Below, piece by piece: positions 13,494 through 57,038 of a stretch of DNA of 64,000 bases. The position numbers and the translations under genes were made by a program. Source of the DNA: Escherichia phage V18. Positions within the stretch are counted from its first letter, which is position 1; the number at the start of each line of letters is the position of its first letter. Where the stretch lies: sequence record NC_041937.1. The stretch is one strand, 5' to 3'. The notes under the pieces are model-generated. The model saw only the letters and a list, made by a program, of their open reading frames with translations, was not told where the DNA came from and did not search any database.

Positions 13494-13502
13494 ACCCCCT
13501 TG

Positions 13503-14495
13503 TTAACGAGAAAAGGTTGCGTAGGCTTCTAGACGATACTGCTGGTCACCAGGGAACATAACACCTATAGAGGCTGTCCCTAGAATCCTGCCTTCCTTTC
13601 CAGACTCCATTCTGAACCCTACCCATCCTGAACTCCTTGCAGCCTCGATGTTGTCGCTATACCCGAAAGTGGCAAGATCGTCAACACCAGCCCCAAACAG
13701 CAACTGAAGCTGACTTCTAGGAAGCCCTATAATTTCAGGAATATACGCACCAAAGTACACCATCTGCCCTACCTTAGGACCGCTGCCGTACTCCATCGGT
13801 TTGCTTGTAGAGAAAGTCTTCATACCAGAAGTACCTGCCGGATTAGGGTATGCCCCGTTTGTTGCTGTACCTATCCACATTCTCCACTGTGGTGCCATCT
13901 GTTTGACAGTAAACGATGTTGAAGACGTTTTGCGGCCTGCATCATCTGTAACTACAAACCTTATAGTGACATTCCCAGGAGCTTTAAATGTTACCAGTCC
14001 TGTGGTAGCATCCACTGTTGCAATGTTGGTATTACTACTTTCCCAAGTCTTTCTGATTCCTGGCACATTGGAAGGGGTAATAGAAGGTTCCTGCATCTGC
14101 AGTTTACCACCTACAATCCCTATCCCGTTTCCTGGATTATACAACGCACCAACCTCGTCTACAATGTTACCTGCCTTGAGACTGTACTTTTTAGAGAAGT
14201 TGTAAGTGCCGTTATATGTGTGTGTCCCTGAGAAGGTTACATCTGCCTTGCCGTTGGAGATGCAAACCAAAGCATACTTCCTGTCAGGCAACTGTGCCCC
14301 AGTTTCTGGGTGAGTTTTACCAACCTGGAACACACTCGGGTCAGTGGAGTCATGGCTATCACTAATGGAGTTTGGGCCACCCATCAGCTGTGACAAACAA
14401 TTCCTTACCCATGTCCAGTTATTATCACTGGAGAAGTCCACAGTCAAATCGAATACAACCCACTCATTTGGCTTCCATACAGGAGTTGTAATCAA
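13503..14495 (-). CDS. structural protein with bacterial Ig-like (Big_2-type) domain
   Basis: 330-aa ORF; segment ATVDATTGLVTFKAPGNVTIRFVVTDDAGRKTSSTSFTV resembles Ig-like domains. Confidence 0.5.
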   Translation of the reverse strand: MITTPVWKPNEWVVFDLTVDFSSDNNWTWVRNCLSQLMGGPNSISDSHDSTDPSVFQVGKTHPETGAQLPDRKYALVCISNGKADVTFSGTHTYNGTYNFSKKYSLKAGNIVDEVGALYNPGNGIGIVGGKLQMQEPSITPSNVPGIRKTWESSNTNIATVDATTGLVTFKAPGNVTIRFVVTDDAGRKTSSTSFTVKQMAPQWRMWIGTATNGAYPNPAGTSGMKTFSTSKPMEYGSGPKVGQMVYFGAYIPEIIGLPRSQLQLLFGAGVDDLATFGYSDNIEAARSSGWVGFRMESGKEGRILGTASIGVMFPGDQQYRLEAYATFSR

Positions 14496-15175
14496 CTTAC
14501 CAACAGAAGGGTTGGAGACTGTTCAGTGATCAGGGCAGAGTATGCCAGAGTGCCTAACTGCATGGTCTGGCTTGCTGTCCTCACTACCTTAGAATCAACA
14601 TCTGTGAAGTTGTTGATGATTTGGAATGTACCATAAGTGTTTTTACAGGTAATTCTGGCGTTCAGTGTGTCAATCTTCCTCACATCTGCCATAGCAGTGT
14701 TAGACACAGAGAAGTCAGAAGCTCTAGCCGAGTTTGCTGCAACAGCTGGATCAACGTTGAGAGTTGCGTTGAACTGGCAGGCAGGAGTAACCAGTAGCTT
14801 GTTATCACCTATTTGCTTCCATGAAACACTTTGAACAGGGAGATTCCATTTAATACCTGAGAAAACTTTAGCAACCCTTGGTCCCAGAGCTCCAGTCCTG
14901 TTGTCTTTACAGCTCATGGACATGGTGATCGTTGACGGAGTGGCCTGACCAAACAATTGCTGTGCTTTTGCAGAGGACATGGTGTAGAAATTGTCCTTAA
15001 CAAACTCATCAGCCGCTAACGATCCGTCAGATCTCCACCATTGCACCTGGTAGCCTGTCTTATCCCAGCCACCAACCTGCTTCAAGTCCTCCCAAGAGAT
15101 TTCCAGATCCCCAGTGGTAGGTTGATTGCCGCAGTTCCCGGTGTTCCAGATGACCATATTGGGATATCGAACCAC
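14492..15175 (-). CDS. hypothetical tail-associated protein (start uncertain; 94-nt overlap with upstream ORF)
   Basis: 227-aa ORF from track. Confidence 0.4.
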   Translation of the reverse strand: MVRYPNMVIWNTGNCGNQPTTGDLEISWEDLKQVGGWDKTGYQVQWWRSDGSLAADEFVKDNFYTMSSAKAQQLFGQATPSTITMSMSCKDNRTGALGPRVAKVFSGIKWNLPVQSVSWKQIGDNKLLVTPACQFNATLNVDPAVAANSARASDFSVSNTAMADVRKIDTLNARITCKNTYGTFQIINNFTDVDSKVVRTASQTMQLGTLAYSALITEQSPTLLLVS

Positions 15176-16047
15176 GCTGGTTTAACAGACTGCACTGCGT
15201 TAGGTCCTATTGCAGCAGCAAGTTGTTGACCCATCAATACGCGAGTATCTTTCACATAACCCCACTCGATCATAGACCCAGAGTAACCCTCTTTCTTATA
15301 CGCGGATGACCCATTCAAGTGAATAAGTCTACTTGTGCCGAAGTTATACGCCCCACCACCATTATCATCTGCAAAATTGTATATGATTCTATCCCTAATA
15401 TCTTTCCATGCCCTACCGCCAATCTCGTAGTCATGGTCATAGCATCTTTGCAGCGTTGTCCAGCAGATGATTGCCATCCTTCTACCGTTACTGAAGCCGA
15501 AAGCCTGATCGTTAAGCTCTCTCCACAAGTAGCAGTTGGTGGTCCACATGGCTCTGTGAATGTTGTACCAGTTTATAGATTTGGCAGAGTTGTTCCACTG
15601 AGTTCCGGGTAATTCAGGCCATACTGCATTAACCAGCATGTCCTCTGTCCCTGCATCTATCAAGAAGCCTCTCACCTTCTTACCCATACCTACTCTGTCT
15701 TTGGCAATCCATGCGCCAAACAATCTCAGTTTTGGACCGTAAACATCCTCTTCGCGATGCTCAAGAGAAACATACTTTAGATATACCGTAGGGTCACCGT
15801 AGGTGTCGGATATTCTTTTATCCCCTGCATATGGTGAGTCTGCAAACTGGTAGTGCAGAGCAACTTCAAAAGGATGTGTGGATGTTCCGTTTTCTGCAAG
15901 AACTTGCTTCCCGATCAGATCGCATTTAATAATCATCACGACACGTTTGTACCCCCAGGTTAACGGAACAACAAACGGAATCAGGCAGTTCACCAGGTCC
16001 CCAGAATATTGCTCCGGAACAGTTGTAGAACCACTTGTTAGGATCAT
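15082..16047 (-). CDS. hypothetical tail-associated protein
   Basis: 321-aa ORF, ATGA overlap with upstream gene. Confidence 0.45.
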   Translation of the reverse strand: MILTSGSTTVPEQYSGDLVNCLIPFVVPLTWGYKRVVMIIKCDLIGKQVLAENGTSTHPFEVALHYQFADSPYAGDKRISDTYGDPTVYLKYVSLEHREEDVYGPKLRLFGAWIAKDRVGMGKKVRGFLIDAGTEDMLVNAVWPELPGTQWNNSAKSINWYNIHRAMWTTNCYLWRELNDQAFGFSNGRRMAIICWTTLQRCYDHDYEIGGRAWKDIRDRIIYNFADDNGGGAYNFGTSRLIHLNGSSAYKKEGYSGSMIEWGYVKDTRVLMGQQLAAAIGPNAVQSVKPAWFDIPIWSSGTPGTAAINLPLGIWKSLGRT

Positions 16048-18065
16048 AGTTGTTCTTGAAGGTCTGAACCTCGTTTGCCTGTTTCAACAAGAAAACATGC
16101 CTGTCGATCAGCATATCCAGGTTGGTTAAACCACTGATTGCAAGAATAGTCCCGCATATAGTCATAATCAGAGTATTTGTTGTTTGCATCCTCGTTCCAA
16201 CACAAGTTCAGGTTGGTGCCGCCCATGCACACAATATATTCTTCAACGTATTTATCACTTCGGGTGGGAATACCTATGAACCATCTGTTAACAGGTTCGT
16301 CCCAAGCTGTGCGCTCATCTTTAACGCAGATAGCAATCCAGTCATGTGTTCCTGTTTTCTTGCACACATCGCGCTTCATACCGTAGTAGAACTCTTTAGT
16401 ATTTGGCTCAGGTGCGCTTATCAGGTAGCTCCACGCCTGGTCTGCATAGGTTCCGTTGGTGCGAGGGTCATGATCAAAGGCATACATGAGGATCCTTTCC
16501 CCACCAAGATGTTCGCCAAGAGTAACTTTGACATTCACATCGCCGTAACCGTTGCGAACAACATCCATATTGTCAATAGAGATGCCTCTAGGGGTGTAGG
16601 CAATTTTCAGTGAGTTATCCTCACTAGTGCCACCAAGGGTGATCCCTATGTTATTTGTTGTCCCGTCGGCATATCTTACTGTAGCTTCCCAGCGTATTCC
16701 GAAATATCCTGCATCATGGCTAACAATTTTCAGTGTACGAGCACCAGAGTTAGGTTTTCCAGGATCAGGCCAAGGGTTTGGGTGTTCGTGAACAGTCAAC
16801 GATGTCCCGTTTTGTTCATTGACCTGCAACATTTTACCACCTCTGCCGTTTGGGTTGAACTCCCATAAGGCCTGTGTCTGCACCAAGTTATCATAGGTAT
16901 TTCGTCGCTGATTATAAATCTCTTGGGTAACATCATAAGTTACTGATCCAGCATCCATTCTGTGGAGTCTGACCATATACGATGTATCCCCTTCTACTGC
17001 AGGCTGAGCCGCATTCAGCCCAAAGTATACAGTATCATTAACATGGAACTGTTTGTTTCTACCGGCAGTATGCCATTTACCATCAGACGGGTACGCTGGG
17101 ACGATAGTGTTCCAGTTCAAAGTCCTTGTTGTGTGGGTTCTGCCTGTGCCATGTTTGTCATGATAGGTTCTGTTAACATTTCTGTTATATTGGGTAACAA
17201 CAACTTCGTTGGCCCCGCCGTGGTTCCAGTTGGTGGAGAATTGGTAATTTGCATCTGTAACAACCGTGCCTGCAGCATTTACCAGCTCAATCTTGTCAAT
17301 AATGAACGTAGCCCCTTCTGGCTGAGGCTTCAATTTCATCTTGACCGTGTCACCAATGTAAATATTGCTAACGCTGCTAACACCGTTAACGTCGAAAATA
17401 TCATCAACACCCCAACTATCTACCGGGACATTTTTATACCAATTCTCCGGAATCTCTGTGAACCCTTGGCTGTTAAGTCTGCCGCCAAAGAGGTTATTAG
17501 ATCCTGAAAAACTACCACGTGGTATTCCTGACCACCAAAGCTTTCCATTTACCACACAGAATGTGCCTAAGAAACCTTCCCTGTGGATCCCTTGAAAATA
17601 AACGCTTTCTGTCCAACTTACTGGCTCTGTCTGTTCAACAAACTTAGCTGTTGCCAGCGCTCTGTAATGAATAAAATTGGCCCTAGGGTTGTTGTTTGCA
17701 GATTGAGCACCAATATCATTACACAAGTTGCGAGAGAATCCACGATACTGCTTAGTGCCATTGTTGAAGAAAATGCCACTTGTGCCGTACCCACGAGCCA
17801 TTATTACCTCATGAACATTCCAGGCTGTTTCGCTCGGATAGTTTATAGGGCTACGATCCCCAGTGCGGCACTCTCCGAACTTGTTATAGCCAGTAATATT
17901 AAGCTGACCATCATCAAAAAGTATAGCTAAGCTATTTACATAGGATACTGTGTTGCTTGTACCATCACTGTTGTCTATTGGGTATGACAGAACAGCAAGT
18001 TCCTTAATTCCACCCCTCTTATCGAGGAAATGACGACCAAGTTTTAGCAAAGGGATTGGAAGCAT
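16044..18065 (-). CDS. large tail fibre/tailspike-like protein
   Basis: 673-aa ORF rich in G/N/T/S/Y; position in fibre cluster. Confidence 0.5.
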   Translation of the reverse strand: MLPIPLLKLGRHFLDKRGGIKELAVLSYPIDNSDGTSNTVSYVNSLAILFDDGQLNITGYNKFGECRTGDRSPINYPSETAWNVHEVIMARGYGTSGIFFNNGTKQYRGFSRNLCNDIGAQSANNNPRANFIHYRALATAKFVEQTEPVSWTESVYFQGIHREGFLGTFCVVNGKLWWSGIPRGSFSGSNNLFGGRLNSQGFTEIPENWYKNVPVDSWGVDDIFDVNGVSSVSNIYIGDTVKMKLKPQPEGATFIIDKIELVNAAGTVVTDANYQFSTNWNHGGANEVVVTQYNRNVNRTYHDKHGTGRTHTTRTLNWNTIVPAYPSDGKWHTAGRNKQFHVNDTVYFGLNAAQPAVEGDTSYMVRLHRMDAGSVTYDVTQEIYNQRRNTYDNLVQTQALWEFNPNGRGGKMLQVNEQNGTSLTVHEHPNPWPDPGKPNSGARTLKIVSHDAGYFGIRWEATVRYADGTTNNIGITLGGTSEDNSLKIAYTPRGISIDNMDVVRNGYGDVNVKVTLGEHLGGERILMYAFDHDPRTNGTYADQAWSYLISAPEPNTKEFYYGMKRDVCKKTGTHDWIAICVKDERTAWDEPVNRWFIGIPTRSDKYVEEYIVCMGGTNLNLCWNEDANNKYSDYDYMRDYSCNQWFNQPGYADRQACFLVETGKRGSDLQEQL

Positions 18066-18085
18066 TGTGTTCTCCAGATAAGAAA

Positions 18086-18108
18086 ACCGCCCCGTCAGGA
18101 GCGGTTAG
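18086..18108 (-). terminator. putative terminator hairpin
   Basis: AACCGC...GCGGTT stem downstream of 18114..19859. Confidence 0.4.
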
Positions 18109-23256: not shown

Positions 23257-25329
23257 TTATGAGAAGTCTGGCGGGACAACATCTTCTACATACCCTTTCA
23301 GAGCAACCTGCCCCATATGAAGCACGGTAGAATCTCTAGCGGTAACAGTGATGCTGTCAGACATTACTTGCGGGTATGCCCACACATACTGTTTTACCTC
23401 AGGGTATCTATACTCTATAGTTGCCATGTTTCCGCAAATACATCTCCATAAAAATTCTTGGTAATTCCTAGTTGGGTCGTAGCCATATACCGGAGCAAGC
23501 TCTTTACTAGGAACGAACCCTGCAAGGTATTGTATTTCAGACGGTTGCCAACCTAACTTAACGATAGGTATGTTTACAGACTCTTTTGCCTTTTCAATAC
23601 CTCCCTGCATCACCCAATCGTAGCACTCGGTGCAGAAGAAATCAAGAGCACCTGCTTCCTTTTTATATTGGTCAGCAAGGTTCAGCTTTTGTGTAAGCTC
23701 AGTTTCCATAATGGTTGGGAAAAACAACAAAGCTGTCATCTGAGCTGATGCAGCGTGTGCCTTTATTGCCTTTGAAATAGCCGCAATACGAGCGCCAAGC
23801 TTACCACGACAAAATGCTACATACTTGTCGTAAACACCGCCAGTTTTAGGATCGTCAATAGTCCCAATATCTAATGCATACTCACCTGTCTCATCATAAA
23901 ACGCCTGCTTTGTAGGATAATCATAAATACAAGGTCTACGAGTATCGGTATTGTACCACCACCACGGTTCACCAACCTGCATAATCACTGGCAGGTTGTT
24001 TCTCATAGCGGCTGATGCAAAATTCTTAAATACTGCAGTAAGGAAATTCATACCCTCTTCAATGGTTGGAGACAGGAGGTAGCTACAAGGTGTATACCCT
24101 GTTTTAGCGTAGTTATCGTTCCAGTCTCTTTGGGTCCATTCCAACGGGCAGGCATCGCTGAAAAGCTCAAAACTTACAGATTGCATAACGTCGAAGTTAT
24201 GTCGTTTGGCATTGTACATAAAATCATCATGCCATTTATAAGCTGCAGCGTTTAGCGCTCCTGTTCTGTTTATAGACCATTGAGTTCCTGACCATGTGTA
24301 GTCATAATAATGACTCATACCAACATAATGGTTTATGGTTCCGGTATAGCCCAGACGCTTGATATTGTTCAACACCCTTAAAGGAGATACGTTCCACATG
24401 TCGTCATATGCGGTGCAGATCCCAACGTCGTGCTCTCTCACCTGAATATTGTTAAGTTGCATCATTTTCCAGCCTGTGTCTGGCTGAAGCAGATCTAGGC
24501 GCAACTCACACTCTACATTTTCCGTTCTCGGGTCTGTGCTATTACTTACCCAGTCTTTAGGCATGAGCGGTATTAAAATCCTTCTCACCTGCCGAGGATC
24601 AACACCCATCATGCTGTTATTCTGGTCCATCCCGACGCAGTCCTCAAAATCAATATGAATTTCTGCAACATTCTTATCCTCTGAGATGCTGACAGCATAT
24701 TGAGCTAAAGGAACATAGATGATTGTGCCATCAACAAGGTCTACAGTCATAATCATCTTTTCAGGAGTGGAGAAGTTGCTGGCGTTGGTTATTGACATTC
24801 TGAACCAAAGCTTGGTGTTTCTCATCTCATAGTGATCATCGAACCCAATACCGAAATGGTCATACTTGTCAACTGTTTCCCAAATGCACCCAGCCATACC
24901 TCCATATGTTCTTGACACTAAACGGTTAATACAACAGTTGTTATCTGCAACAATACAGGTACTTTCAGTCTGCTGAGTAGTTGTAACCCAATACCTTGGG
25001 TGGAACATTCTCTCCTCGACAGTATCCCAAGATATCCTGTCAAGATTCTCATCTGAAACTATTGTACATTTCGCCCTTTGTGTCCCAATCATCACCCCTT
25101 GGGATTTTGATGAAAACTCCATAAAGAAGCTTCTTGGCAACCTATTGGGTAATTTGTCAACAATTTCCACCGGGATCTCAATACTGGTTGCCCCAATTGG
25201 GATAGTTACATCGCCCTCAACATGATTATAATCCCTACCAGGAACAGCAGTATCCTGAACTGTTCGGTAATGAAACTGTGCGGCCATTGTAGAGTAATCA
25301 CGGTAAGGTTTAAAAACAGCTGTTGCCAT
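23257..25329 (-). CDS. large tail-associated protein with Calx-beta-like N-terminal domain
   Basis: 690-aa ORF; DYNHVEGDVTIPIGATSIEIPVEIVD resembles Calx-beta motif. Confidence 0.5.
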   Translation of the reverse strand: MATAVFKPYRDYSTMAAQFHYRTVQDTAVPGRDYNHVEGDVTIPIGATSIEIPVEIVDKLPNRLPRSFFMEFSSKSQGVMIGTQRAKCTIVSDENLDRISWDTVEERMFHPRYWVTTTQQTESTCIVADNNCCINRLVSRTYGGMAGCIWETVDKYDHFGIGFDDHYEMRNTKLWFRMSITNASNFSTPEKMIMTVDLVDGTIIYVPLAQYAVSISEDKNVAEIHIDFEDCVGMDQNNSMMGVDPRQVRRILIPLMPKDWVSNSTDPRTENVECELRLDLLQPDTGWKMMQLNNIQVREHDVGICTAYDDMWNVSPLRVLNNIKRLGYTGTINHYVGMSHYYDYTWSGTQWSINRTGALNAAAYKWHDDFMYNAKRHNFDVMQSVSFELFSDACPLEWTQRDWNDNYAKTGYTPCSYLLSPTIEEGMNFLTAVFKNFASAAMRNNLPVIMQVGEPWWWYNTDTRRPCIYDYPTKQAFYDETGEYALDIGTIDDPKTGGVYDKYVAFCRGKLGARIAAISKAIKAHAASAQMTALLFFPTIMETELTQKLNLADQYKKEAGALDFFCTECYDWVMQGGIEKAKESVNIPIVKLGWQPSEIQYLAGFVPSKELAPVYGYDPTRNYQEFLWRCICGNMATIEYRYPEVKQYVWAYPQVMSDSITVTARDSTVLHMGQVALKGYVEDVVPPDFS

Positions 25330-25892
25330 TAACCCTCCTGTCTAGTTGCGTTTACTGTAATACTTTCACAATAAATGGTTGTGGTGTCCCAATCAGGTCT
25401 TACGTCAGGAACATACAGCAAAGTAGCCAGCCCACCAACTCCGAATTGGTTTTCTTCCCACACTGATCCGAAGCCAAGAGCTGTAGAGTCCCCTTCAAAA
25501 CCAAAAGCTTGCCCTTGCGATTCTGTAAGACGCAAATGACAAGGCAATGGTAGCATATCTAAGATCTGATCGATAGACTGCAATATGTCAAAGCAAGTTT
25601 TTCTAATATTTATGTCAAACCGGAAGTTGTCTCCTTTCCACGTATCGAAATTGTCTCTTCCGAACAATTGTCGCAAGGTGGAGATGACATCTTCACGAGT
25701 CCCGCCCCTTGATGCTGCGGCCTGCTGAATAATTAGTGTGGCACGAAAATCAGCATCTGAAAGTCCATTCCTAAGAATACCAAGTTGATTACCAACTTCG
25801 TCAAGGTATCTTCCGCTGGCATTGTTAAGCAATCTTCCTTCAGCCAAACCTACCAGCATCTTATCAACATCCTCCAACCTTTTAAGGTACAC
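25329..25892 (-). CDS. hypothetical baseplate/tail protein
   Basis: 187-aa ORF coupled to neighbours. Confidence 0.4.
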   Translation of the reverse strand: MYLKRLEDVDKMLVGLAEGRLLNNASGRYLDEVGNQLGILRNGLSDADFRATLIIQQAAASRGGTREDVISTLRQLFGRDNFDTWKGDNFRFDINIRKTCFDILQSIDQILDMLPLPCHLRLTESQGQAFGFEGDSTALGFGSVWEENQFGVGGLATLLYVPDVRPDWDTTTIYCESITVNATRQEG

Positions 25893-26025
25893 GGTTAAGA
25901 ATGTGACTAAATTAACCTTCTCAGCCAGAAAATCTCCAGGCAGGTAGTCAAGACCTCCCTGAACAAAATCTGGCAGAGTGTGGATGTGGTTAACATCGAC
26001 TTAATCTCTGCCATATCTCGCCGCC

Positions 26026-27516
26026 TTAAATAGTTTGTTGGAAAGTTATATTACTTTCGTCAAGGTCAAACACCTCGGTCATGTTCGCAACAATATCGTT
26101 TGTAGTGTAAGCTTCATCAGAAGCTCCTACTGGTTTAACTTGAATTACCAGTCTATTAAATCTGCCTATTGACACAGCAGCAGATGCAGCACCGACCAAT
26201 TGGATATTATACAACGTATCTGCAACATCCAGTCCGTTAACAACCTGTAAAAGAGCCTCTATAATAGCATCTTTTTCGGTTGTGGAAAGCGCAGCACCGG
26301 AGTAGGTAATTCTTACATCTAGGCGGTAGGTATTTGCCTTGGAGTAATAAATTCTTTCAGTTTGACCGTCAGATGTAGTGACATCGTAGAAAATATTACC
26401 ATAAGTCCTGTTCGTACAGGCTATAGTTTGGTAAAGTGCTTGGCAAATGTCCTCCGTTGCACCACCAAACACAACCACTTGGAACTTGTAAGGAGGTATA
26501 CCTTTAGCATCAGTTTTATCAGTGTTGTTGGAGAACACTCTCACTTTCTCAACACCTTTCACCTCGCTTACAGCGCTAAGGATTGCAGGACGGGTAGCCT
26601 TAGATGTTAACTGTTTTGTGCTGGAAGCTCTTAAGCGATACTCTGAGTCTTTCTCAACATCTCTGCCCTCATTGAATCTTTCTCGGTTGGTAAGCTTGAT
26701 AAATCCACTGGGTGTAGGAGACATTGTTGTTACGGTTTCTGCCTCTCTTGACAGCTCACCAGCCTCGTTAGCGATAACATCCAGGGTGATAGTTCTTTCC
26801 CCTACAATCGGGGATACTCTGAAATCTACTCTACTATTAAGTCCAACTTGATCAAGATTCGAATTGTACCCTATCCACAACGTTCCTGTCAACATATCGA
26901 TCTGAATCAAATCGTCGTTCAACAGGGTTGTATTATCGACAATAAACTGCTTAATCTCTCCGTAAAAGCTTGGCAGATCAGAAGAGTCCAGAGACTTATC
27001 TGTTAAAACCAGACTTTTTGTTTTGATACTTCCATCTGTCTGGTTGGTAATTTGAAAGTTGTATTTACCAATCCTTAGGTCTGGAGCATTTATTCTGTGA
27101 GCAATAAGATTCCCTGCTACTTGCACATCGTTGCTAAGCACAAAGTTGCCACTGTCCAGCGTATAAGTTTTGGAATCATAAATCATATTGTACGGCACAG
27201 TTGTGTTGATTGTCAACTGACAGGTGCCTGATGATTTAGAACGGCCTCTTCGGTAAATACCCTGTCTTCCAAGAAGCTCATCCAGGTAAATACCTTCTGC
27301 CCCATACAGCGTCTGTGATGCGTATACAGATGCTGCCATAAGAATAAGTTGATACTCTCGCTCGTTGAAGATAGTGGTCAGCTTATCTGCAACGGAGTTA
27401 CTCTGTACGTTGAAGTTTTCGCCAAAAGCACGGATCAGGCTTTGCTTAGTTTCAACGATTAGGTCATTTAGGGTTGGTATAACGAAACCAGCCTCTGTCA
27501 ATCCATACTTAGCCAC
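26026..27516 (-). CDS. baseplate J-like (gp6-like) protein, tentative
   Basis: 496-aa ORF; N-terminal pattern resembling Baseplate_J family; assignment from memory only. Confidence 0.45.
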   Translation of the reverse strand: MAKYGLTEAGFVIPTLNDLIVETKQSLIRAFGENFNVQSNSVADKLTTIFNEREYQLILMAASVYASQTLYGAEGIYLDELLGRQGIYRRGRSKSSGTCQLTINTTVPYNMIYDSKTYTLDSGNFVLSNDVQVAGNLIAHRINAPDLRIGKYNFQITNQTDGSIKTKSLVLTDKSLDSSDLPSFYGEIKQFIVDNTTLLNDDLIQIDMLTGTLWIGYNSNLDQVGLNSRVDFRVSPIVGERTITLDVIANEAGELSREAETVTTMSPTPSGFIKLTNRERFNEGRDVEKDSEYRLRASSTKQLTSKATRPAILSAVSEVKGVEKVRVFSNNTDKTDAKGIPPYKFQVVVFGGATEDICQALYQTIACTNRTYGNIFYDVTTSDGQTERIYYSKANTYRLDVRITYSGAALSTTEKDAIIEALLQVVNGLDVADTLYNIQLVGAASAAVSIGRFNRLVIQVKPVGASDEAYTTNDIVANMTEVFDLDESNITFQQTI

Positions 27517-27612: not shown

Positions 27613-27621
27613 CTTTAAAGG

Positions 27622-30365
27622 TTAGTCGTGAGACTCGTTCCAAGGTCCCTGGAAGCTAGAGTTTGAACGACTTACTATCACAGTAGGACAGGATATTGTA
27701 ACACCTGTTACAGCTGAGGTGGACCAGCGTGTGTAAATTTCAACAATAATGTCTATGGTTTGTTCACCCAGCCCTGTTATCCCGACTGCACACATACCAT
27801 CGTTATCGTTACCATACTTCTTGCCGTTAAGCTTAAAGAAGAATGTTACGTTCTTGCCTTGGCCTTGAACGTTATCCACGTATCTCCATCTCCAACGGCA
27901 AACCTGCTGCCGAGAGTTGTATACTGGAGGACAGTCACCGTAGGTCTTGTGTGCAACTATTGCACCTTCGAACTGGTTAGCACGGATAACGGAAGCTTCT
28001 ACACGTCCACGGAATGTACCTCCTGTTGCATCTATGGTTCCTCTAAAGCTACCATTGTTGGCATAAACATCTCCACGGAAGGTACCACTGGTGGCGTTAA
28101 CTGCCCCTGTGAAGTTACCTGCACTAGCGTTGATGTTACCTTTCACCCACACATCCATAAACTGGGCGTGCCCGTTCTTGTTAATATACCAACCGTATTT
28201 ATGGTACCCGTTGCCATCGTAGTTGTTTGACGAAATCTCTTGTGCGATCTTGGCAGAGGAGATCGTGCCATTCTCTATAAAAGCGTCTTTCAAGAACGCT
28301 TGGTTGTTCTTGATTGCGAAAGCAAGGGTTGCTGTTCCATTGCCGGGGTTGTATACCGCAAAATTGTTTGCACTAACCATGAAGTAGGATTGAACTTGGC
28401 CCCCAGACCCTTCCATCCCCAACTGGATACCTGCAACATATTTAAGCAGCGTGCAGCGCATTCTACAAACTGAGAACTACCAAAAGCGTTTGTGGTTCGA
28501 ATATACCAATAATAAACCTTATCGTTCTGCAGACCTTCAGATGTCCAAGTTGAACCAACACCCATACGGGTGGCGTTTGAAGTAACGGTTGCATCGCTGG
28601 TGTCGGGCAACCTTGTCATACCAGATGTCCAAAAGTCATACTGGGTGCTTACACTTGCTAAATCCCTGCTGTGTGGAATCAAGGTGATAGCAAAGTATCC
28701 CTGCTTAACCTCTACAGAAACAGGAGCTTCAGGTGCCTGAATGTTAAACTCGCAGTACGCTTCTGGAGATACACCACCTTTATAAGATGTTGCAACCACG
28801 GTTGCTGTGTATGATCCTTTGGTCAAGCCTTCTACTCGGACAAACTGCTCAACTGTCTGTGCTGTCCAAACAATCTCTCCGTTCTTTCTTACCTGCACAA
28901 TATTTTGAGCGTAAGTTCCAACGTTGTCCCAAGCCAAAACACCGTGAGTTACTTCCCCGGCTTGGAGAACGGAATATCTGAAGTTTTGCGGTTGAGCTAC
29001 ACCAGATGGAGATATCGGAATATCTACATTGCCAGAATCCGGAAGTTGCCCTGTGGCATCATTCCACTCTTTAGCATCTTGACGAAGTTTTACCTTGACA
29101 CCACCCTTTTTGGTAAACTCCCATTCAAGAACCCTCATTTCTTGGCCCACTATACCAATACTTGGAAGGTTCATTGTAACGTAACGACCAGGTTTAAATT
29201 TAAAACCCCGCATATTGCAGGTGACTTCAATAATCCTGCCAGCTCTAGCGCGTCTTAAGAAGATTGCAGAAACACGCTGAGCTTGATAAGGGCTGGTAAC
29301 AAAGCGATAGTCTATATCGATTATCTTTCTTTCTCCATCCTTCTCTATCCACTCTGGGACAAACACTGATGGAAAATCTGTTTCAGAATACCCTTTAGTC
29401 GGACTGGTGAATCTGCCAGTTATTGTGTTGGATCTTTTGTCAAACGAGGCTTCCGGATAGATCTTGACCTCACCACAGACACAGTCCTCACTCAGTGTCA
29501 TTGTTGCTGGACCATAATATGCACCTACCAGCAGTCCATACTTACCAGCTACATAACTGAGATCTGCACCACAAGCTTTCAGCATTTCTGCCATAATACT
29601 TGCTGGAGCCTCATCCATGTCGAACTCACCATTGATGGTGTAACGGCGCTCACTAGTTCCGTCCGCGTTTCTTACCGCCTCATCGCATATGTTGGCAGCC
29701 TCCTTGAAGGACTCCCAGTTGATGGTTTCGTCAGGACATTTAAGGTACGTTCTTAAATAATCTAGAATCACCAAGGCCGCGTTATTGGTATACACCTCTT
29801 TACTGATACGAGGATCATAGCATTTTTTACCAACCTTGACGAGTGTAACGTTTGGCAACCCAAAAGGGAACTTGTTAGGGTCAAACCTGAAGCTGGCACG
29901 TAGCCAACTGATCCCTCTACCTATCATGTCTGGTGACCACGATGGGCAGTGTGTACCCATGAAAGGATCAGATGTTTTTCTGTCGTTATGTAGCTCCCAC
30001 GATACCAAATCTCCATACGAGGAAATAGGATTACCGTCGATAAGTATGTCCTCTATACCTTCCAGAGGGTGATTGGCAAGAACAATAGCACAATGGAGGG
30101 TTCTGTCGCTATCCTGCTCCAAAAACGCAAGCAATCCAGATGTGCGTGTCTTTCCATACACTACAGAGCAAGGTGCAGCAGAAGATCTGAGAAGCTTTTG
30201 TCTATCTTGCTGACTTCTGTAAGATTTGTTGCCCTCAAAAATCTTATCCAAAGTTCTGGTGGTCACAGTGTTCAGGCTGTCAGCCAGAGCTGCCTTGGAT
30301 GCGTTCCAGTCATAACTTGAAGATCTTGCAGAAGCAACGATGTTATCAATCATTGCAATTGGCAT
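27622..30365 (-). CDS. lambda J-like tail tip/host specificity protein, interrupted by a frameshift near 28440..28465
   Basis: 28290..30365 carries APEAPVSVEVKQGYFAITLIPH and YYWYIRTTNAFGSSQFVE, closely matching my recollection of lambda J; 27622..28461 in another frame continues with KYVAGIQLGME... and fibre repeats. Confidence 0.6.
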
Positions 30366-30802
30366 TAATACCTCCAGACATCAACAACGATAGAATCTTT
30401 CATGTCGAACATAAAGACCCCTTTATCACCTTTCGCCCAAATCTGGTTGTTCCAGAACACACCAGCGGTGAGCCCGTTCAGACCTTCGAAAATAACAATA
30501 TCGCCACGCTGAACCTGTTTAGGAGTACCCAGTCGAGTCATAAAGAGATCAAAAATAGTAGGCAGGTGTGTAGTTTTGAAACGAAGCATGCACCATCTTT
30601 TGCTTTCCAACTCTGTTTTATACGTTCCTTCGAAGTTGGAAAGAAAATCTGTTCCGTATTGGGCATCAACACACTTAGCTGCAAAGGTGCAACAATCGTG
30701 GAATCCCCATTCAAAAGGTATGGTGGCCTCTTCGTCAAACACTTTCCACAATCTTTCTTGCCAATCCACTAAACGAGGGTGTGTGCTCATTAAACCTCCC
30801 AA
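30365..30802 (-). CDS. NlpC/P60-like tail-associated peptidase, tentative
   Basis: 145-aa ORF; FHDCCTF motif around candidate catalytic Cys; immediately upstream of J-like gene. Confidence 0.45.
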   Translation of the reverse strand: MGGLMSTHPRLVDWQERLWKVFDEEATIPFEWGFHDCCTFAAKCVDAQYGTDFLSNFEGTYKTELESKRWCMLRFKTTHLPTIFDLFMTRLGTPKQVQRGDIVIFEGLNGLTAGVFWNNQIWAKGDKGVFMFDMKDSIVVDVWRY

Positions 30803-31356
30803 ATGATCGGGCGGCTCGCCACCTGATCCACATATTTAAAAAATCTGTCATTATCGTTTCTTGAGCTGTGGCTTTCCTCCGTGTACCGATAAGGAAAACC
30901 TCTTAACCAGCTGTTGAAGATGGAAGAGATGGATATGGACAAAGCACTATTCTCTCCTGTCTGAATAGCCATATCTGTTATAAGGCCGTCAAACAAGCCA
31001 TTAGTTGTGACAGGCAGACCATTCTCCATAGCGGTAATGTACAACGTGGCACGACAACCAGAATACTCCGTCTTCAGCAGATCACCCACATACTTAGGAT
31101 CAAACCCGTTTAATGTTGCTACCACAGACCCGAAGTTGGTGGCATCTTTCTCAGACACAGCAGTTAATGTTGCTGATCCACCTATCCCTATAAAATGTTG
31201 CCCCTCAATTACCACAACACCAGTGCCTGAGCACACCCTGACAGTTCCTGTCGGTAGCTCCAGCTTTGCAGCAATTAAGATCTCAACACCATCAAGCTCC
31301 AGCTTTTCAAGAAATAAATTATCTAATGGCGCTCTGATCATCTTAGAAATCCTCAA
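30790..31356 (-). CDS. minor tail protein
   Basis: 188-aa ORF in distal tail module. Confidence 0.4.
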   Translation of the reverse strand: MRISKMIRAPLDNLFLEKLELDGVEILIAAKLELPTGTVRVCSGTGVVVIEGQHFIGIGGSATLTAVSEKDATNFGSVVATLNGFDPKYVGDLLKTEYSGCRATLYITAMENGLPVTTNGLFDGLITDMAIQTGENSALSISISSIFNSWLRGFPYRYTEESHSSRNDNDRFFKYVDQVASRPIIWEV

Positions 31357-31368
31357 AGAAGTTGATAA

Positions 31369-31932
31369 CTATATTATCACCTTTTTGCATAGCATCGACT
31401 TTTTGCTTAATTTTATAAATATCTCTGATATGAAACCTACCTTCGGAGATTGAGTTATTATCTTCATGGTGTCCCCTGCGGCAATAGGTTTTCTAAGTCT
31501 TGGCGATATGCTTATAACAGCAGACCCAACACCATCACTACGCACTGGAGCTGTTACCACTTTCAATTCATCATTGACAGATATTTTATCTCCAGCTCTG
31601 GCTATGTCTCTGTTTGGCTCCCATCCGACCGTCTTCAAAAAATCGTCGTTACCAGTAGGCCCAAGGGCGATTGGCTCATTAGCTGTTACTGAGTGACCGT
31701 AAGTTTTAATAAGAAAGATGTTCCCATCTTTATACACCTGATCAACAAAGCTCTTAAGCTCTAGCAACTGTGACTCGCTGATATTGGAAACTGTCAAAGT
31801 GCCTTTCCAGTTAGGTGTGGCATAGGTTACTTTTTGCGTTTTACCTGTAAACGGACTTTTAAACGTAACAATATCTGCCAGCAGCTCCAATCTAATATCT
31901 GGAAGATATCTAGGCCTTTCCCATAAAAACAT
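31369..31932 (-). CDS. minor tail protein
   Basis: 187-aa ORF in distal tail module. Confidence 0.4.
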   Translation of the reverse strand: MFLWERPRYLPDIRLELLADIVTFKSPFTGKTQKVTYATPNWKGTLTVSNISESQLLELKSFVDQVYKDGNIFLIKTYGHSVTANEPIALGPTGNDDFLKTVGWEPNRDIARAGDKISVNDELKVVTAPVRSDGVGSAVISISPRLRKPIAAGDTMKIITQSPKVGFISEIFIKLSKKSMLCKKVII

Positions 31933-32031: not shown

Positions 32032-33064
32032 TTACTTCAGTTTCTCTTGCAACCCAGTAACAACCTCTGTCAATTTTTTAACCTGCTCCTCAAGGGCGGT
32101 TATTTTATCATCCTGCTCCCTGCAAACCTGGACAAGCAAGCCTGTTACAGCTGCGTAATCCACGCTGTAGAATCTTTCCTCTGTTATCAAAGGAGTTCCA
32201 TCTTGATCAGGGTTTGGGATTTCCTTTCTTTGCACGAAAGAGCTAACTGCTTCCGGCAGCGCTTCAAGCACCTCTTGTGCTATAACACCTGCATAAGGCA
32301 TACCATTCTCTTTCAAGGTGTAGGTATAACCCTTCATCTTACGGATAGCTTCTAACGCATCAGGAATAACAACTATGTTATCTTTCAGGTCTCTGTCAGA
32401 ACTCTGATTGACAGATGTGCAATTCACAGCACCGTTTACAGAAAGATATCTTGATTTATCCGGCAAGGTACCGCAATGCCATACATAAGCTGATTGAGAC
32501 TCGTCAAGAACCTTAAACTCTAGCACGTTTGGACGAGTCCCTGCACTGCCGTTGCCCCAATAATGCTGCCATCTGGAAAGCGTAGTTTCCAGAAAATGCC
32601 ACAGACAACCCGCCAACAACCATTGAACCTTCAGGTCCGTTGACGTTGCCAGCCAGTATTTTGGATGGGTTGTTAGGCCCAAACTGGTTGTTCCAGTCTG
32701 CACCAGTATGACATACAAAACCACCCGGTGCTGAGAAAGTGCCATCTTTGTTGAAGTTGTAGAATCTATGAGCTGTGCCTACAACATCGCGAACGATAAC
32801 TTGACCAGCTTCCGGAGTAGATCTGAACTCTGCCTGGCCTTGCAGTCTTGCACCATTACCACATTTAGAGGTAAAGGTGTTGTTGATCAGATCCTCTGTT
32901 CCTTCTGATGCAGCTTGGAACCCTGCGTTAGAGAACAGTGCTTTTCTAGTGGTCTGACTACCAGGACAAATGTAGTCAATACCGTCTGCCCAAAGCTCGA
33001 CTTTAGGCATGTTCATTTTGCTCATCACTGCATAGCGTTCAGGAGTCCCCAGGTAGTGCCACAT
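32032..33064 (-). CDS. tail fibre distal segment with C-terminal intramolecular chaperone (peptidase S74-like) domain; internal frameshift
   Basis: ORF 32513..33064 and ORF 32032..32745 overlap in different frames; C-terminal SSDRDLKDNIVVIPDALEAIRKMKGY...VIAQEV matches the S74 autoproteolytic chaperone signature. Confidence 0.5.
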
Positions 33065-33163
33065 AGTTCCACCACCAGTGTAGAAACCTGATGTTCCTTT
33101 GAACTCAACCAGAGGTCTGGTGTTTGTTACATCATCACCTTTGATTGCAAGACTTGGAAAGAA

Positions 33164-34963
33164 TCACCTCTGTCTGTCCAGCCACCAGTTCTGTAGTGAC
33201 ACTGTAGTGTAGCACAGTTCATTGGGTCCCCCTACAGTCCTGGCACTGGTACCACCACAAGCTATCGGTAGTGGTTCCCATTTGGCTTTCCGGTTGTTAT
33301 AAACACCCCATTCCAAACTGCCGTTACCGGATTCGTCCATCCCGCCATCCCAGATGACCATCTTGGCGGCTTTCTTAGATCCCCAGAAACCTCTTTCTGC
33401 TCCTGAACTGCGGATCCATTCTCCAAGTCCCCAGTTTGCCAGCTGACCGTTCAGATCACCAACCTGCATATATTTAGGACAATCTAAGACCCCATCCTCA
33501 CGGAAGCCTAAATATCTATGAGTTTCAGATCCTTTTGCGCCTTTGTGCAGGTGGATTGTCAACCAAGCCTTATTGTCGTTTCTTACCTCAGAGTAGATCC
33601 TATACCCATGCTCAAGGACACCGTCAGCGCTGTATTTGTCCCCGTTAACAATACCTGATGCTGACTTAACATCAGCAGAACTTTGAGACAGGTAAAGGTG
33701 CCCAAAGGTAGGGGAGTTTCTAGACCCGAGACCGATGTGTGCTCTAAAGGTATCATCGTTACGAGGTCTGACCATCGGCTGCCATGCAGTCCACTGATTT
33801 GTGTTGGCCTGGTAGGTTCTCAAATACCAAACATCTACGTTAGAGAATGGATAGTATTCCTGACGACAACCTGTACCGCCGTTAGCATTGTTCTGCCAAA
33901 CAATCAAGTGACCAGCACCAGAACCTGCAGGGTAACCATTTGCCTCAGTTGCATAGGCAGTCATCGGCTGGTAGTACACACCATCCTGATTACCAGTTAA
34001 GTTATTGATATTGAAATTTGGCTCAAGGGCTGCACGTTGCTTATAGAAAGCCCCCAAGTTAATGCGTGAACCTGCGGCATCCCTGGCACCTGTGCCGCCT
34101 TGCTCTATAGCAAGAGGTTGCCACGAAGCTGTTTGTTGGTTCCACATACCCCAACGGCCTGTTGCATCAAGCTGCAAGTACCCTGCTGTGTTTAAATCAT
34201 CTCCAGCACGGATAACTGTTCTTGTTGGGTTGTTTGCCTCTAGGCGTTTAAATTCATCACGAAGTGCTATTCTTTTTGTTGTTGCTACACCGTTGGTTAC
34301 TGCAATGGTATACATGGCTCCGGTGGTAGCGCCACGGAAAATACCATCAACAGTTGTAGTATCACGACGAGATACCACACCATTCAGAAATTTTTCACCA
34401 GCTGCTACAGAAGGGTAGTTGGTAGTTCTTCCCTCTTCAATAACTGCAGGGCCAACAAAGTTATCAAGGTGAATAACATCGCCTACAGTGTGCACTGTAC
34501 CAAAATCTACACGCTGTGCAAGGGCTTTAGCATCGTTAGCTGTCTGAACAGTAACATCCATTACATCCTGGACAGACTGCCCTTCGGCTGTCATAATCAT
34601 AGATGCGCCAATGGTAGATTCCAGCTCCTCCCTTAAGGACGGATCTGTATATACCATCCATGCAGCGTCAGTAATCCCACCATCGGAGTACGGTGAAGAT
34701 AGTGCAGGGACAGTGTGTGGAAATTCGCCTTTCCAACGCAGGTAGAGGTCTTCCTCTTCGAAGTAGGCAAAATCCATTGGGCCGTTTAACTTACCACCTT
34801 CCTTAAAGGAGATTACATGAGAAACAGTCCCATCCACATGGACAACATCGCCAATTTTTACACGACGAGTCAGGTCTGGTTGTTGAACAACCAGGTAATC
34901 ATCCTCTGTCACTGCGGTAGTGGCAGGAAGAGATTCAATTCTGACAACTTTAATATCAGCCAT
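33164..34963 (-). CDS. tail fibre protein (N-terminal anchor plus shaft)
   Basis: 599-aa ORF; N-terminal DDYLVVQQPDLTRRVKIGDVV shared with 37598..38266; ends at a TGA that is in frame with the downstream fibre segment. Confidence 0.55.
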   Translation of the reverse strand: MADIKVVRIESLPATTAVTEDDYLVVQQPDLTRRVKIGDVVHVDGTVSHVISFKEGGKLNGPMDFAYFEEEDLYLRWKGEFPHTVPALSSPYSDGGITDAAWMVYTDPSLREELESTIGASMIMTAEGQSVQDVMDVTVQTANDAKALAQRVDFGTVHTVGDVIHLDNFVGPAVIEEGRTTNYPSVAAGEKFLNGVVSRRDTTTVDGIFRGATTGAMYTIAVTNGVATTKRIALRDEFKRLEANNPTRTVIRAGDDLNTAGYLQLDATGRWGMWNQQTASWQPLAIEQGGTGARDAAGSRINLGAFYKQRAALEPNFNINNLTGNQDGVYYQPMTAYATEANGYPAGSGAGHLIVWQNNANGGTGCRQEYYPFSNVDVWYLRTYQANTNQWTAWQPMVRPRNDDTFRAHIGLGSRNSPTFGHLYLSQSSADVKSASGIVNGDKYSADGVLEHGYRIYSEVRNDNKAWLTIHLHKGAKGSETHRYLGFREDGVLDCPKYMQVGDLNGQLANWGLGEWIRSSGAERGFWGSKKAAKMVIWDGGMDESGNGSLEWGVYNNRKAKWEPLPIACGGTSARTVGGPNELCYTTVSLQNWWLDRQR

Positions 34964-50387: not shown

Positions 50388-51212
50388 TTATTCACCACCT
50401 TTCAGAGTTGCTTTAACAACCAGCTCTGGACGGGTGTTAACTGCCAGCATGGAAGTTTCAGATTCAATCTTCTCTTCACGCAGGTATGCAGAGTGTTTAT
50501 ACCACATGTACAGTTCCTGTGCTGGAGTGTTTGCTTCGTTAACATCGTCTGCCGGAGCAAAGTGCAGCTGGAACATCTGATCAATACCCATCGGCAGAAT
50601 GCGAGCTTCTTTCTTAGGAATATTGCCAGAGATATCTTCGATAAAGGTGATACCTTTATGCTCAAACACACGGTATACGCTGTCTTGACCGCCAGCACCC
50701 AGACGGCGACGCAGAGGTTCCTGAGCAGAGCCGTAATAGGTGTATGCCAGTTCTACCAGAGGGTCATACTGACAGGTTGTGTCACCAGGTGCATAGGATT
50801 TACCCAGAATAGCCTGGAACAGCGCTTTCTCACGCAGTGCTTCATGAGAAACACGGATACGGCGAACAACGCGGGTTACTACGTCCTGAACAGTTTTCGG
50901 AGCATCAGGTGTGAAGTAACGACGGAAGTTCTGAACATCTGCTGCGGTGATGCCTTTGTCCAGAGGGAAGAACGGGATGTTCAGGTTTTTAACCTGAGCA
51001 CGTTCACTACCAACGTAGTTACGCTCACCACCACGACGGCGTGCCGGAATGTCGGTTACAACTTCATCAACACGCTCAATCTGAGCAATTGTTGAGGTGC
51101 CGAGACGGGTTTCGAACAGATCCATACCAGTAATCAGGCGGAATTGACGCGGAACAAGGTCCAGAGTAGCACCTAAATCAACAATGCCAAATTCATCTTT
51201 ACGAGTAATCAT
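50388..51212 (-). CDS. putative major capsid protein
   Basis: 274-aa ORF, codon usage of a highly expressed gene, strong terminator downstream, position after portal/scaffold; short for an HK97-fold capsid protein. Confidence 0.45.
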   Translation of the reverse strand: MITRKDEFGIVDLGATLDLVPRQFRLITGMDLFETRLGTSTIAQIERVDEVVTDIPARRRGGERNYVGSERAQVKNLNIPFFPLDKGITAADVQNFRRYFTPDAPKTVQDVVTRVVRRIRVSHEALREKALFQAILGKSYAPGDTTCQYDPLVELAYTYYGSAQEPLRRRLGAGGQDSVYRVFEHKGITFIEDISGNIPKKEARILPMGIDQMFQLHFAPADDVNEANTPAQELYMWYKHSAYLREEKIESETSMLAVNTRPELVVKATLKGGE

Positions 51213-51296
51213 TTATTTCTCCAAAGTAAAATTGTAGCCAGCATCGCTAGAATCAACTTTGCCGAGCACGATATCAGAATATTGAGCGGTAATCAT
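51213..51296 (-). CDS. 27-aa upstream ORF duplicating the capsid gene initiation region
   Basis: GAAATAAATGATTAC occurs twice (51205..51219 and 51289..51303); uORF MITAQYSDIVLGKVDSSDAGYNFTLEK ends TAA immediately before the capsid ATG. Confidence 0.3.
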   Translation of the reverse strand: MITAQYSDIVLGKVDSSDAGYNFTLEK

Positions 51297-51380
51297 TTAT
51301 TTCCCCCGTTAAACTCTTATGCTTCAGCAGATCCAGATACTCTTTAGTTTTGGTTGCGTCCCTTGATCAGGTTCCCTTCT

Positions 51381-51728
51381 TTATCGAAGAGATCCCAGCC
51401 TACCAATACAAGACTCTGCGTCAGCTTGCGCCCATTCCCAATCAGGATGCTCTTTAGCCCAAGCCTCCTCTTCAATCTCAAAACCAAGCATGTGTGCAAG
51501 TGCTTTAGCATCATCATACCACATATCGAAGAAACGACGCAAGTATTCTTCAAAACTAAGCTCCACAGTAACTTGGCGAAGTGCCTTAACAATATCGTCT
51601 GTTAACTGCTCAGGCTTAAGATCACTCTTCATCAAAAGAGATACAGGTCTGTTGTTAGCGCTATAGCCTTGCGCCTTATGGCACAGGGCAATCCCCTTCT
51701 CTTTAATAGTAATCGTTTTTTCAGACAT
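51381..51728 (-). CDS. head protein (decoration or scaffold-associated)
   Basis: 115-aa ORF between scaffold/protease-like and capsid genes. Confidence 0.4.
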   Translation of the reverse strand: MSEKTITIKEKGIALCHKAQGYSANNRPVSLLMKSDLKPEQLTDDIVKALRQVTVELSFEEYLRRFFDMWYDDAKALAHMLGFEIEEEAWAKEHPDWEWAQADAESCIGRLGSLR

Positions 51729-53873: not shown

Positions 53874-55429
53874 TTAGATAAAACGCTTGAACATAGAAGG
53901 TGATGAGATTGATGGAATCACACAAGGAAGTGCTACCTCCTCTTTCTCCAGGAAATTAATCGCAGAAGCTACACAGTCGGCCCAGTCGTCTTTTCTGTTA
54001 AATGTTGATCTTTCCCCGTTGAATTTTTCAAGTTCAGTCAGAAATGCTTCCAGAGTATCAGGATGGAAACTGGATTTTACAATCCTCACCATTCCTTGTT
54101 GGGCAAGATTGGCAAAAGGTGAGAACCTTGTCAGTTTAGATTTGTTGGAAGGCATTGGGTCTTCTTCAACCCTAAACCCTTCGGCAAGCAAGGATCTGGA
54201 GGAGGTTAAGAACTCACTCTTACCTGCCTGACCGGGGTCCACAGAGAATACGATTATACAATCATCACCATCAAACTGCGCCTGTTTCCTGATGATCACA
54301 TCTCGTTCACCAGCCTTTTTACAGAACTTGCCTTCCAGACCTGTGGAATACCTCCCGTCATCCACGTTCTCAGGACAATAATCCCCGGACAGGTAATAAA
54401 AGCCGTCGCTATCTTTACTTACCTTGACACTGGCGGTAAAGTCAGGAAATTTATTACCGGAAGTTCTCTCGGTTCCTGCTTTATCCCATGCCCTGCAAGA
54501 CACTGATCCAAGGGGTACTCTATCGGCATCACGAAGGAAAGATCTTTGAAAATAGTTTGCACCCTCAGGCTTTGCAAACCAGTTACCATGGAGAAGCTGA
54601 GCTTTTTCAAGCTCGGGCAGACCTTCAAGGAAAGCAAGGTATTCTGGGTTGTCTCTTAAGCAGACAGGATTATCGAAGATTGTTGCGCCTATAAACGAGA
54701 ATGACAACGGTCTCGGCTTGATCTCTACACCCAGTCCGTTAACCGTGGTGTATTTCTCTATCAACTCTTCTTTAGAGTCTCCCCAGATAAATTCACCGTC
54801 GCGTCGGATAAAATATCTTTTCTTACCGCATTTCTCCGGATCTGGATACCCTTCATCGTCCAACCACCACCTAACCAGTTTGGCAAGCATGTGTTCTGAA
54901 TCGGGGTTACAGCTGATAACCATTCTTGATGGATACTTTGACTGAGATCTCAGACGAGACATCAGATAGTCTATCTGCTCCCATTCGAACTGCGTGCCTC
55001 ATCGAAGCAAACCAAGCAAACCATGGTATACTCAAGCCCTTGATGGTTAAGCTTATCTTGTACATACTCCATGTGGCAGTATTTTACAACAGCTCCCTTT
55101 TTGCTTCTATCCCACTTGCCAGTGTTCGGATCAAACCGTGGAAAAATGAACTTATGATCCTTCTCTCTGAACTTTGGCTTAATGTTTTCAGGCAGATCAC
55201 TATAAATAGCTACTGCTTTAGGCCATAGTCCACCCTCACCTTCCAACTGTGGGGTTGTTCTTCGGAACATAACCACAGAGCTGTGGGGGTCATCAATAAT
55301 TTTAAGTGGCATCAATTGCAAGAGGAACGACTTGCCAGACCCTGCGGCACCGCCGATTACCAAAATATCTGCATCGTTTTCGAGGATCATCTTCTGCTTT
55401 TCAGAACACGGTCCGTAAATCTTAGACAT
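53874..55429 (-). CDS. terL: terminase large subunit, split by apparent frameshift at about 54975..54998
   Basis: N-terminal ORF 54971..55429 has Walker A GGAAGSGKS and Walker B LVCFDEA; C-terminal frame is open from 54998 (QFEWEQIDYLMSRL...) and continues in ORF 53874..54962. Confidence 0.7.
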
Positions 55430-56485: not shown

Positions 56486-56531
56486 TTTAAAGGTTCCTTT
56501 TGTTTATATATGTTTAAAGTATAACTGAAAG

Positions 56532-56608
56532 TGGTCTCCACGGAGTGATTCGAACACTCGACCTCCTGATCCCAATGGTTTATCTCTACCAAGCTGAGCT
56601 ACGCGGAG
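56532..56608 (-). tRNA. tRNA-like gene, possible anticodon TGG (Pro), anticodon stem does not pair as read
   Basis: Good acceptor stem, TTCGAAT T-loop and encoded CCA; putative anticodon loop ATTGGGA but flanking stem unpaired. Confidence 0.45.
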
Positions 56609-56619
56609 TATTTATTATT

Positions 56620-56694
56620 TGGTGGCCCTGGGTGGAATTGAACCACCGTCTGGCGATTATGAGTCGCTTGCTTGAACCTTCCAGCTACAGGGCA
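56620..56694 (-). tRNA. tRNA-Met/Ile-like (anticodon CAT)
   Basis: T-arm GGTGG-TTCAATT-CCACC, anticodon loop CTCATAA, encoded CCA; position 1:72 mismatched. Confidence 0.55.
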
Positions 56695-56770
56695 TGGTGC
56701 TGATAGCAGGACTCGAACCTGCAACCTATTGATTACAAATCAATTGCACTACCAATTGTGCTACATCAGC
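56695..56770 (-). tRNA. tRNA-Thr (anticodon TGT)
   Basis: Clean cloverleaf: 7-bp acceptor, D-stem GCAC/GTGC, anticodon stem ATTGA/TCAAT with loop TTTGTAA, T-arm GCAGG-TTCGAGT-CCTGC, CCA encoded. Confidence 0.7.
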
Positions 56771-56775
56771 AAAAA

Positions 56776-56860
56776 GGTGCTAGGTGATGGAATCGAACCA
56801 CCTATGTATTCAACGACCAATAGATTTACAGTCTACACCGCTACCTCTACGGGATAACTC
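56776..56860 (-). tRNA. tRNA-like sequence, Tyr-like anticodon arm (GTA) with long variable region; no acceptor stem found
   Basis: Anticodon stem-loop GTAGA-CTGTAAA-TCTAT and T-arm with TTCGATT loop present; 5' and 3' ends do not pair. Confidence 0.3.
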
Positions 56861-56867
56861 CCCAATT

Positions 56868-56942: not shown

Positions 56943-57038
56943 ACTGGGTGGCTTTCTTTTACACCTTAGCCGCCAGAAAAGGTGGGAGACCATGTTTACA
57001 ATATTACACTGTTAAGCAAAGTTTGTCAAGAAAATATT

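Follow-up and report, generated by a model that had tools for sequence, protein, structure and literature searches.

The J-like central tail-fibre/baseplate-hub gene of Escherichia phage V18 was found in two overlapping ORFs, from between whose native parts 1,039 nt are absent in comparison with all the relatives, and the split is probably an artefact of assembly or sequencing that extends over the whole window, i.e. the 64,000-nt stretch (NC_041937.1) analysed. From the gap, its uniqueness, the other lesions and the signature of purifying selection, all of which were observed directly, we infer a technical cause rather than a true deletion. The artefact is favoured because the same two kinds of lesions recur in many genes of the window, the indispensable ones included.

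Both ORFs were present on the minus strand at the coordinates given by the earlier note: ORF1 at 28290..30365 (691 aa) and ORF2, in the -1 frame relative to ORF1, at 27622..28461 (279 aa). The peptides quoted in the earlier note were also found in the translations, and the ORFs overlap as described there, by 172 nt (28290..28461) instead of 170 nt. The N-terminal 641 codons of the J-like gene are read in their native frame at 28445..30365 (minus strand) and contain the Ig_J and Ig_J_second (FN3-like) domains; codon 641 spans the 28444/28445 junction. The nucleotide identity of this part of 1,921 nt to EmilHeitz, slur16 and bov10K2 was 96-97%, and the amino acid identity of residues 1-645 to the relatives was 98.8%. 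The last 50 residues of ORF1 (28290..28444, minus strand), previously taken for junk-like sequence, are actually encoded by native C-terminal coding sequence which is read in the wrong frame until a stop codon occurs by chance. Translated in the frame of ORF2, these nucleotides yield KYVAGIQLGMEGSGGQ..., which is identical in the relatives. The C-terminal 273 codons, at 27622..28443 (minus strand) in their native frame, correspond to residues 989-1279 of the 1279-aa form and comprise a truncated Phage_Tail_Tip domain and a distal fibre/tip domain. The nucleotide identity to the relatives was 93-94% over most of the C-terminal part and just 86-89% over the distal 204 nt, and the C-terminal allele of the window differs from those of all relatives compared. 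The ATG that opens ORF2 (28459..28461, minus strand) is fortuitous, lying out of frame within native E-C-A codons 14 nt upstream of the junction. The interpretation of ORF1 and ORF2 as fragments of a single ancestral J-like gene, orthologous to rV5 ORF37, is supported.

Judged by sequence similarity, the J-like assignment of the locus is correct. Pfam Ig_J_second (PF24489) was detected at ORF1 residues 547-642 with an E value of 1.2e-29 (102.8 bits versus a cutoff of 27), and Phage_Tail_Tip (PF09327) was detected in ORF2 with an E value of 8.5e-31, covering positions 32-138 of the 139-position profile only. An intact relative covers profile positions 1-138, so the gap in the window, in which the first ~31 positions are lost, cuts through the domain. 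The proposed similarity and colinearity with lambda J held for both pieces: ORF1 residues 497-640 align to lambda J 666-807 (E = 2.6e-14) and ORF2 residues 8-66 to lambda J 876-934 (E = 2.9e-8), and other J-like tips also match ORF2. The domain order is colinear with that of J, but the two domains sit in different frames in the window, while in all relatives examined both are found in one ORF. No sequence matches were found between ORF1 and the N-terminus of lambda J; weak matches of ORF1 residues 243-472 to T5 pb3 (residues 526-752) were obtained with E values of 8.8e-5 and 6.3e-4.

The description of the tail as lambda-type did not stand. The window belongs to a Vequintavirus, an rV5-like, contractile-tailed E. 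coli myophage with a complex baseplate, whereas lambda is a siphovirus. Ig_J_second followed by Phage_Tail_Tip is the order shared by lambda J (PDB 8iyk and others) and the Vequintavirus protein. In contrast, a coiled-coil insertion of ~300 aa separates these domains in the intact Vequintavirus protein and is absent from lambda J, the N-terminal hub has similarity only to T5 pb3 (E about 1e-4) and not to lambda J, and the distal receptor-binding end is unrelated to lambda J.

A megablast search with 27000-31000 of the window resulted in 116 matching phage records of 90-99% identity, 112 of which cover at least 80% of the query. All of them are rV5-like E. coli myophages, some under the mislabel 'Campylobacter phage'. 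In all 25 records listed, the matching stretch was 5,097 or ~5,400 nt long compared with 4,001 nt in the window. In EmilHeitz, slur16 and rV5, one gene of 3,840 nt (1279 aa) occupies the locus, which encodes forms of 1199 aa in FFH2 and 1381 aa in BP9. Every orthologue examined is one ORF of 1199, 1279 or 1381 aa, versus 691 + 279 aa in the window, where the coiled coil is entirely absent. The annotated names vary: 'central tail fiber J' for gp094 of slur16, 'tip attachment protein J' in BP9, gp036 in FFH2 and 'lateral tail fiber protein with fibronectin type III domain' for bas49_0031 of EmilHeitz. The neighbours of the locus match those in rV5-like genomes (Baseplate_J-like downstream, DUF6950 upstream). 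The position, neighbours, start codon, stop codon and domain order of the rV5 ORF37 orthologues are common to the window, which differs from them by the lack of 1,039 nt (the central coiled coil with its flanks), by the broken frame and by the lack of 19 codons of the distal tip.

A blastn comparison with EmilHeitz gave three colinear blocks across the locus: window positions from 28445 upwards correspond to L001 5542 onward, 27824-28444 to L001 3882-4502, and positions up to 27825 to L001 up to 3826. The same gaps of 1,039 and 57 nt were obtained with bov10K2. The larger gap lies at 28444..28445 (a junction with no strand assigned) and amounts to 346 codons plus 1 nt, present in all relatives. 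Since 1,039 equals 3 x 346 + 1, the reading frame is broken, and as a consequence of this 3n+1 gap ORF1 reads 50 codons out of frame to the chance stop. According to the protein alignment, residues 642-988 of the 1279-aa form are lost, i.e. the whole coiled-coil stalk and conserved flanks on both of its sides. The stalk is the sole part differing in length among the relatives (1199-1381 aa proteins), and the central segment of the gene is 79% identical or unalignable between them. The gap disregards domain limits: the end of Ig_J_second is lost together with positions 1-31 of the Phage_Tail_Tip profile.

The junction reads ...GCACGCTGCT directly followed by TAAATATGTTGCAGG..., and no microhomology was found at the breakpoints. 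Recombination between internal coiled-coil repeats and a microhomology-mediated deletion were considered and rejected, as neither breakpoint falls within the repeats and there is no homology between the two. When a 300-nt probe with the junction at its centre (window 28295-28594) was searched, 115 phage records matched, none of them across the junction: all the alignments stop at probe position 150/151. The same probe had no match in complete E. coli genomes, and the junction 30-mer was not found in viral, genome and metagenome contig collections. A look-up of the ORF1 protein likewise gave no existing record.

The earlier note had placed the break near 28440..28465 and ascribed it to one indel. 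The place was right, the break being located at 28444/28445. The cause is refuted by the 1,039 nt absent relative to all 115 related records. A single-base indel in this region, either an assembly error or a mutation, splitting an otherwise complete J gene would agree with the one-base difference between the frames and with the 1-nt homopolymer deletions that are common elsewhere in the window. It is nevertheless practically excluded as an explanation: positions 28444 and 28445 align 1,040 nt apart in every relative, and a one-base repair leaves the protein 346 residues short with a truncated Phage_Tail_Tip. One inserted base does restore the frame, but the product of ~914 aa is devoid of the 346-residue central stalk.

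The second junction (27824..27825, no strand assigned) is an in-frame absence of 57 nt (19 codons, TLASSQLNAWIAGHQILVG) in the most divergent, distal segment of the J-like gene. It was spanned by none of the 11 records matched by a 300-nt probe. This smaller gap may represent natural allelic variation of the distal tip.

It is also extremely improbable that the arrangement is functional, with the two ORFs expressed separately or joined by -1 ribosomal frameshifting at C-UUA-AAU into a stalk-less fibre. ORF2 does lie in the -1 frame, and a near-slippery CTTAAAT is situated exactly at the junction. On the other hand, this heptamer is non-canonical, its first base violating the X XXY YYZ pattern, and no canonical slippery heptamer was found in the ORF overlap, CTTAAAT being the only candidate. 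The fold of the 89 nt downstream is no more stable than that of shuffled sequences (z = +0.59). The start of ORF2 has the weakest Shine-Dalgarno pairing of the 44 starts tested: the anti-Shine-Dalgarno pairing of its ATG was -2.8 kcal/mol compared with -4.3 to -13.4 kcal/mol (median -7.4) of the 43 native starts in the window. The junction occurs in none of the 115 relatives, which means that it is not conserved, and the deletion cuts a folded domain. Programmed frameshifting and independent initiation of ORF2 were rejected on the weak start and the lack of downstream structure and of conservation. A literature search for tail-fibre frameshifts in Vequintavirinae returned nothing relevant. It is likewise very unlikely that the deletion is genuine and tolerated, in a natural variant that lacks the stalk of ~350 residues and still makes usable protein, whether by -1 slippage at a low level at C-UUA-AAU or in the form of separate N- and C-terminal polypeptides. 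If this were true, the stalk and the distal tip of the J-like fibre would be dispensable on the propagation host.

The substitutions between the window and bov10K2 were distributed as 255/141/1464 over codon positions 1/2/3, and the codon changes were 1430 synonymous versus 324 non-synonymous. Within the J-like gene, the synonymous to non-synonymous changes relative to bov10K2, counted in the native frames, were 57:3 upstream and 50:11 downstream of the gap. Window-private substitutions, taken as the sites at which the window differs from three concordant relatives, were counted in the J neighbourhood and resulted in 10/6/79 by codon position, with 78 synonymous and 13 non-synonymous changes. 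Relaxed selection, as expected of a decaying pseudogene or remnant, was not seen in these private substitutions. The excess of synonymous changes in the native frames indicates that the lineage of the window evolved with intact, selected genes, and the disruptions are either extremely recent or not real. Vequintaviruses are strictly lytic (PMC8594841) which, together with the lack of a junction-probe match in complete E. coli genomes, makes a decaying integrated copy unlikely. A decaying prophage-like remnant is unsupported by the E. coli genome search, by the substitutions relative to bov10K2 and by the private substitutions.

The rest of the window was compared with phage bov10K2 as the reference (97-98% nucleotide identity, 80 CDS). 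According to tblastn of the bov10K2 CDS, at least 20 of the 80 genes are distributed over different frames or lack internal segments in the window. The gap in the J-like gene is one among more than twenty lesions by which genes of the window are broken. The disrupted genes include rIIA, several early genes, the tape measure, the large terminase, baseplate and tail genes, two other fibre genes, the major capsid, head decoration and scaffold genes. The earlier note had offered an assembly error or a defective locus; the choice was the right one, and the disruption of at least 20 genes, several of them essential, tips the balance strongly towards a problem of the entire sequence and away from a locus-specific event. 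A genome in which the terminase, capsid, scaffold and tape measure genes are all broken cannot form plaques, and no viable phage can be encoded by the sequence in its written form.

Single-base deletions were found at 1041, 23168, 25997, 31440, 39971, 43560, 47502, 49907, 54997 and 61598, mostly in short runs, chiefly of G or C. Their flanks are otherwise near-identical to the relatives, and rIIA, the baseplate and tail genes (23168, 25997, 31440, 39971, 47502), the tape measure (43560), the large terminase (54997) and others are frameshifted by them. Eighteen isolated 1-nt indels were found where the surrounding sequence is otherwise identical, and 15 of them are deletions in the window; 12 of the 15 lie in homopolymers of at least two bases and 12 are G or C. 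This is the pattern left by base-calling or consensus errors, as opposed to mutations under selection. A 9-nt tandem duplication (AAGCAAACC) was also observed within the large terminase gene at 55005..55013, 8 nt from the single-base deletion at 54997.

Larger losses were detected in the structural genes. The major capsid gene (50388..51212, minus strand) has an in-frame gap of 186 nt (62 codons) at 50764, resulting in a protein of 274 aa versus 335 aa. The missing segment is 95% conserved among the relatives and present in all of the at least 101 relatives covering the probe. The head decoration and scaffold region (window 51227..51494) is reduced to islands of 94, 42 and 34 nt, with gaps of 349, 366, 82 and 116 nt in comparison with EmilHeitz and CM1. 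This patchwork resembles patchy read coverage collapsed to a consensus. A tail-fibre gene that encodes 1270 aa in bov10K2 extends over 32032..34963 (minus strand) in three ORFs (33164..34963, 32513..33064 and 32032..32745). It has an N-terminal Tail_spike_N domain and a C-terminal Peptidase_S74 chaperone domain, and lacks stretches of ~470 and ~410 nt relative to the bov10K2 gene. The largest fibre gene (~13500..18100, minus strand; 1875 aa in bov10K2) lies in at least six frame-shifted pieces with gaps of ~350 and ~700 nt and with stretches merely 75-90% identical at the protein level, and is probably a divergent allele combined with assembly damage. The possibility that the gaps are instead insertions in the reference, e.g. 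homing endonucleases, was rejected since the segments absent from the window belong to ORFs that run uninterrupted in the relatives examined.

In the preferred explanation, that of an artefact, the sequence would come from an assembly of low quality or low coverage, or from a reference-guided consensus that leaves out stretches not covered by reads. Under-called homopolymers would be combined with the dropped stretches, and the J-like gene would lose 1,039 nt in its middle, the variable stalk with the conserved flanks, in the written sequence. The downstream part surfaces as a separate ORF opening at the accidental ATG. Several observations count against the artefact. The 28444/28445 junction is clean, with zero Ns and zero ambiguity codes, and the stalk varies naturally in length (1199-1381 aa). 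Tail-fibre genes undergo real deletions during laboratory passage. Clean gaps of 40-1,000 nt are not known as typical errors of any one sequencing platform, and a specific workflow, e.g. one in which uncovered regions are dropped, must for that reason be assumed. Failed read mapping of a divergent allele was considered as the sole cause of the gaps and rejected, as it fits the J-like gene but not the capsid gap with its 95% conservation.

It is possible, yet rather unlikely, that the 1,039-nt deletion is real. In that case the J-like gene would be truncated and frame-shifted in the sequenced DNA itself, which could be a recent spontaneous deletion mutant, a defective genome complemented by intact siblings in a mixed lysate, or a very recently inactivated phage remnant. 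Such a deletion would be in agreement with the clean and unique junction, with the naturally length-variable character of the deleted stalk and with the C-terminal allele, which is distinct from those of all relatives and points to an independent lineage where new variants are expected. It is contradicted by the simultaneous breakage of the terminase, tape measure, capsid, scaffold and about 15 other genes (non-viable as written), by the error-like homopolymer and G/C bias of the small lesions and by the selection still seen in the private substitutions; the integrated-copy version is weakened further by the lytic genus and the E. coli genomes. A defective sequence rather than a defective phage is the parsimonious reading.

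Public Vequintavirus sequences of doubtful quality or provenance do exist as 'UNVERIFIED' rV5-like records filed as Campylobacter phages (MG0656xx), and the window has the hallmarks of such a record. None of the records of this type matches the window across the junction, and in A140, the one examined, the J-like gene is an intact ORF of the 1381-aa class.

The value of the result lies mainly in quality control. As the lesions in more than a quarter of its genes are best accounted for by the production of the sequence, the window is unfit for the mining of pseudogenes, frameshifts or 'split' genes. Even if the deletion were real, it would show no more than that an rV5-like phage can lose one of its several fibres, a minor and unsurprising finding. 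Nothing new on phage biology follows from either the artefact or the real deletion.

Two further features of the window were recorded. The tRNA cluster at 56500..56950, as predicted by ARAGORN, contains Met, Thr and Arg only, in comparison with Pro, Met, Thr, Tyr and Arg in bov10K2; tRNA-Tyr is lost in a gap of ~400 nt at 56784-56817, and the expected place of tRNA-Pro contains small indels at 56576-56583. Around the J-like gene, a DUF6950 protein is encoded immediately upstream (30365..31932, minus strand), and a Baseplate_J-like wedge protein and a protein with 'non-contractile tail sheath' TIM-barrel domains are encoded downstream (23257..27516, minus strand). Siphovirus-type tip genes and myovirus baseplate genes form here a mosaic that is known from the annotations of the relatives and is poorly characterised.
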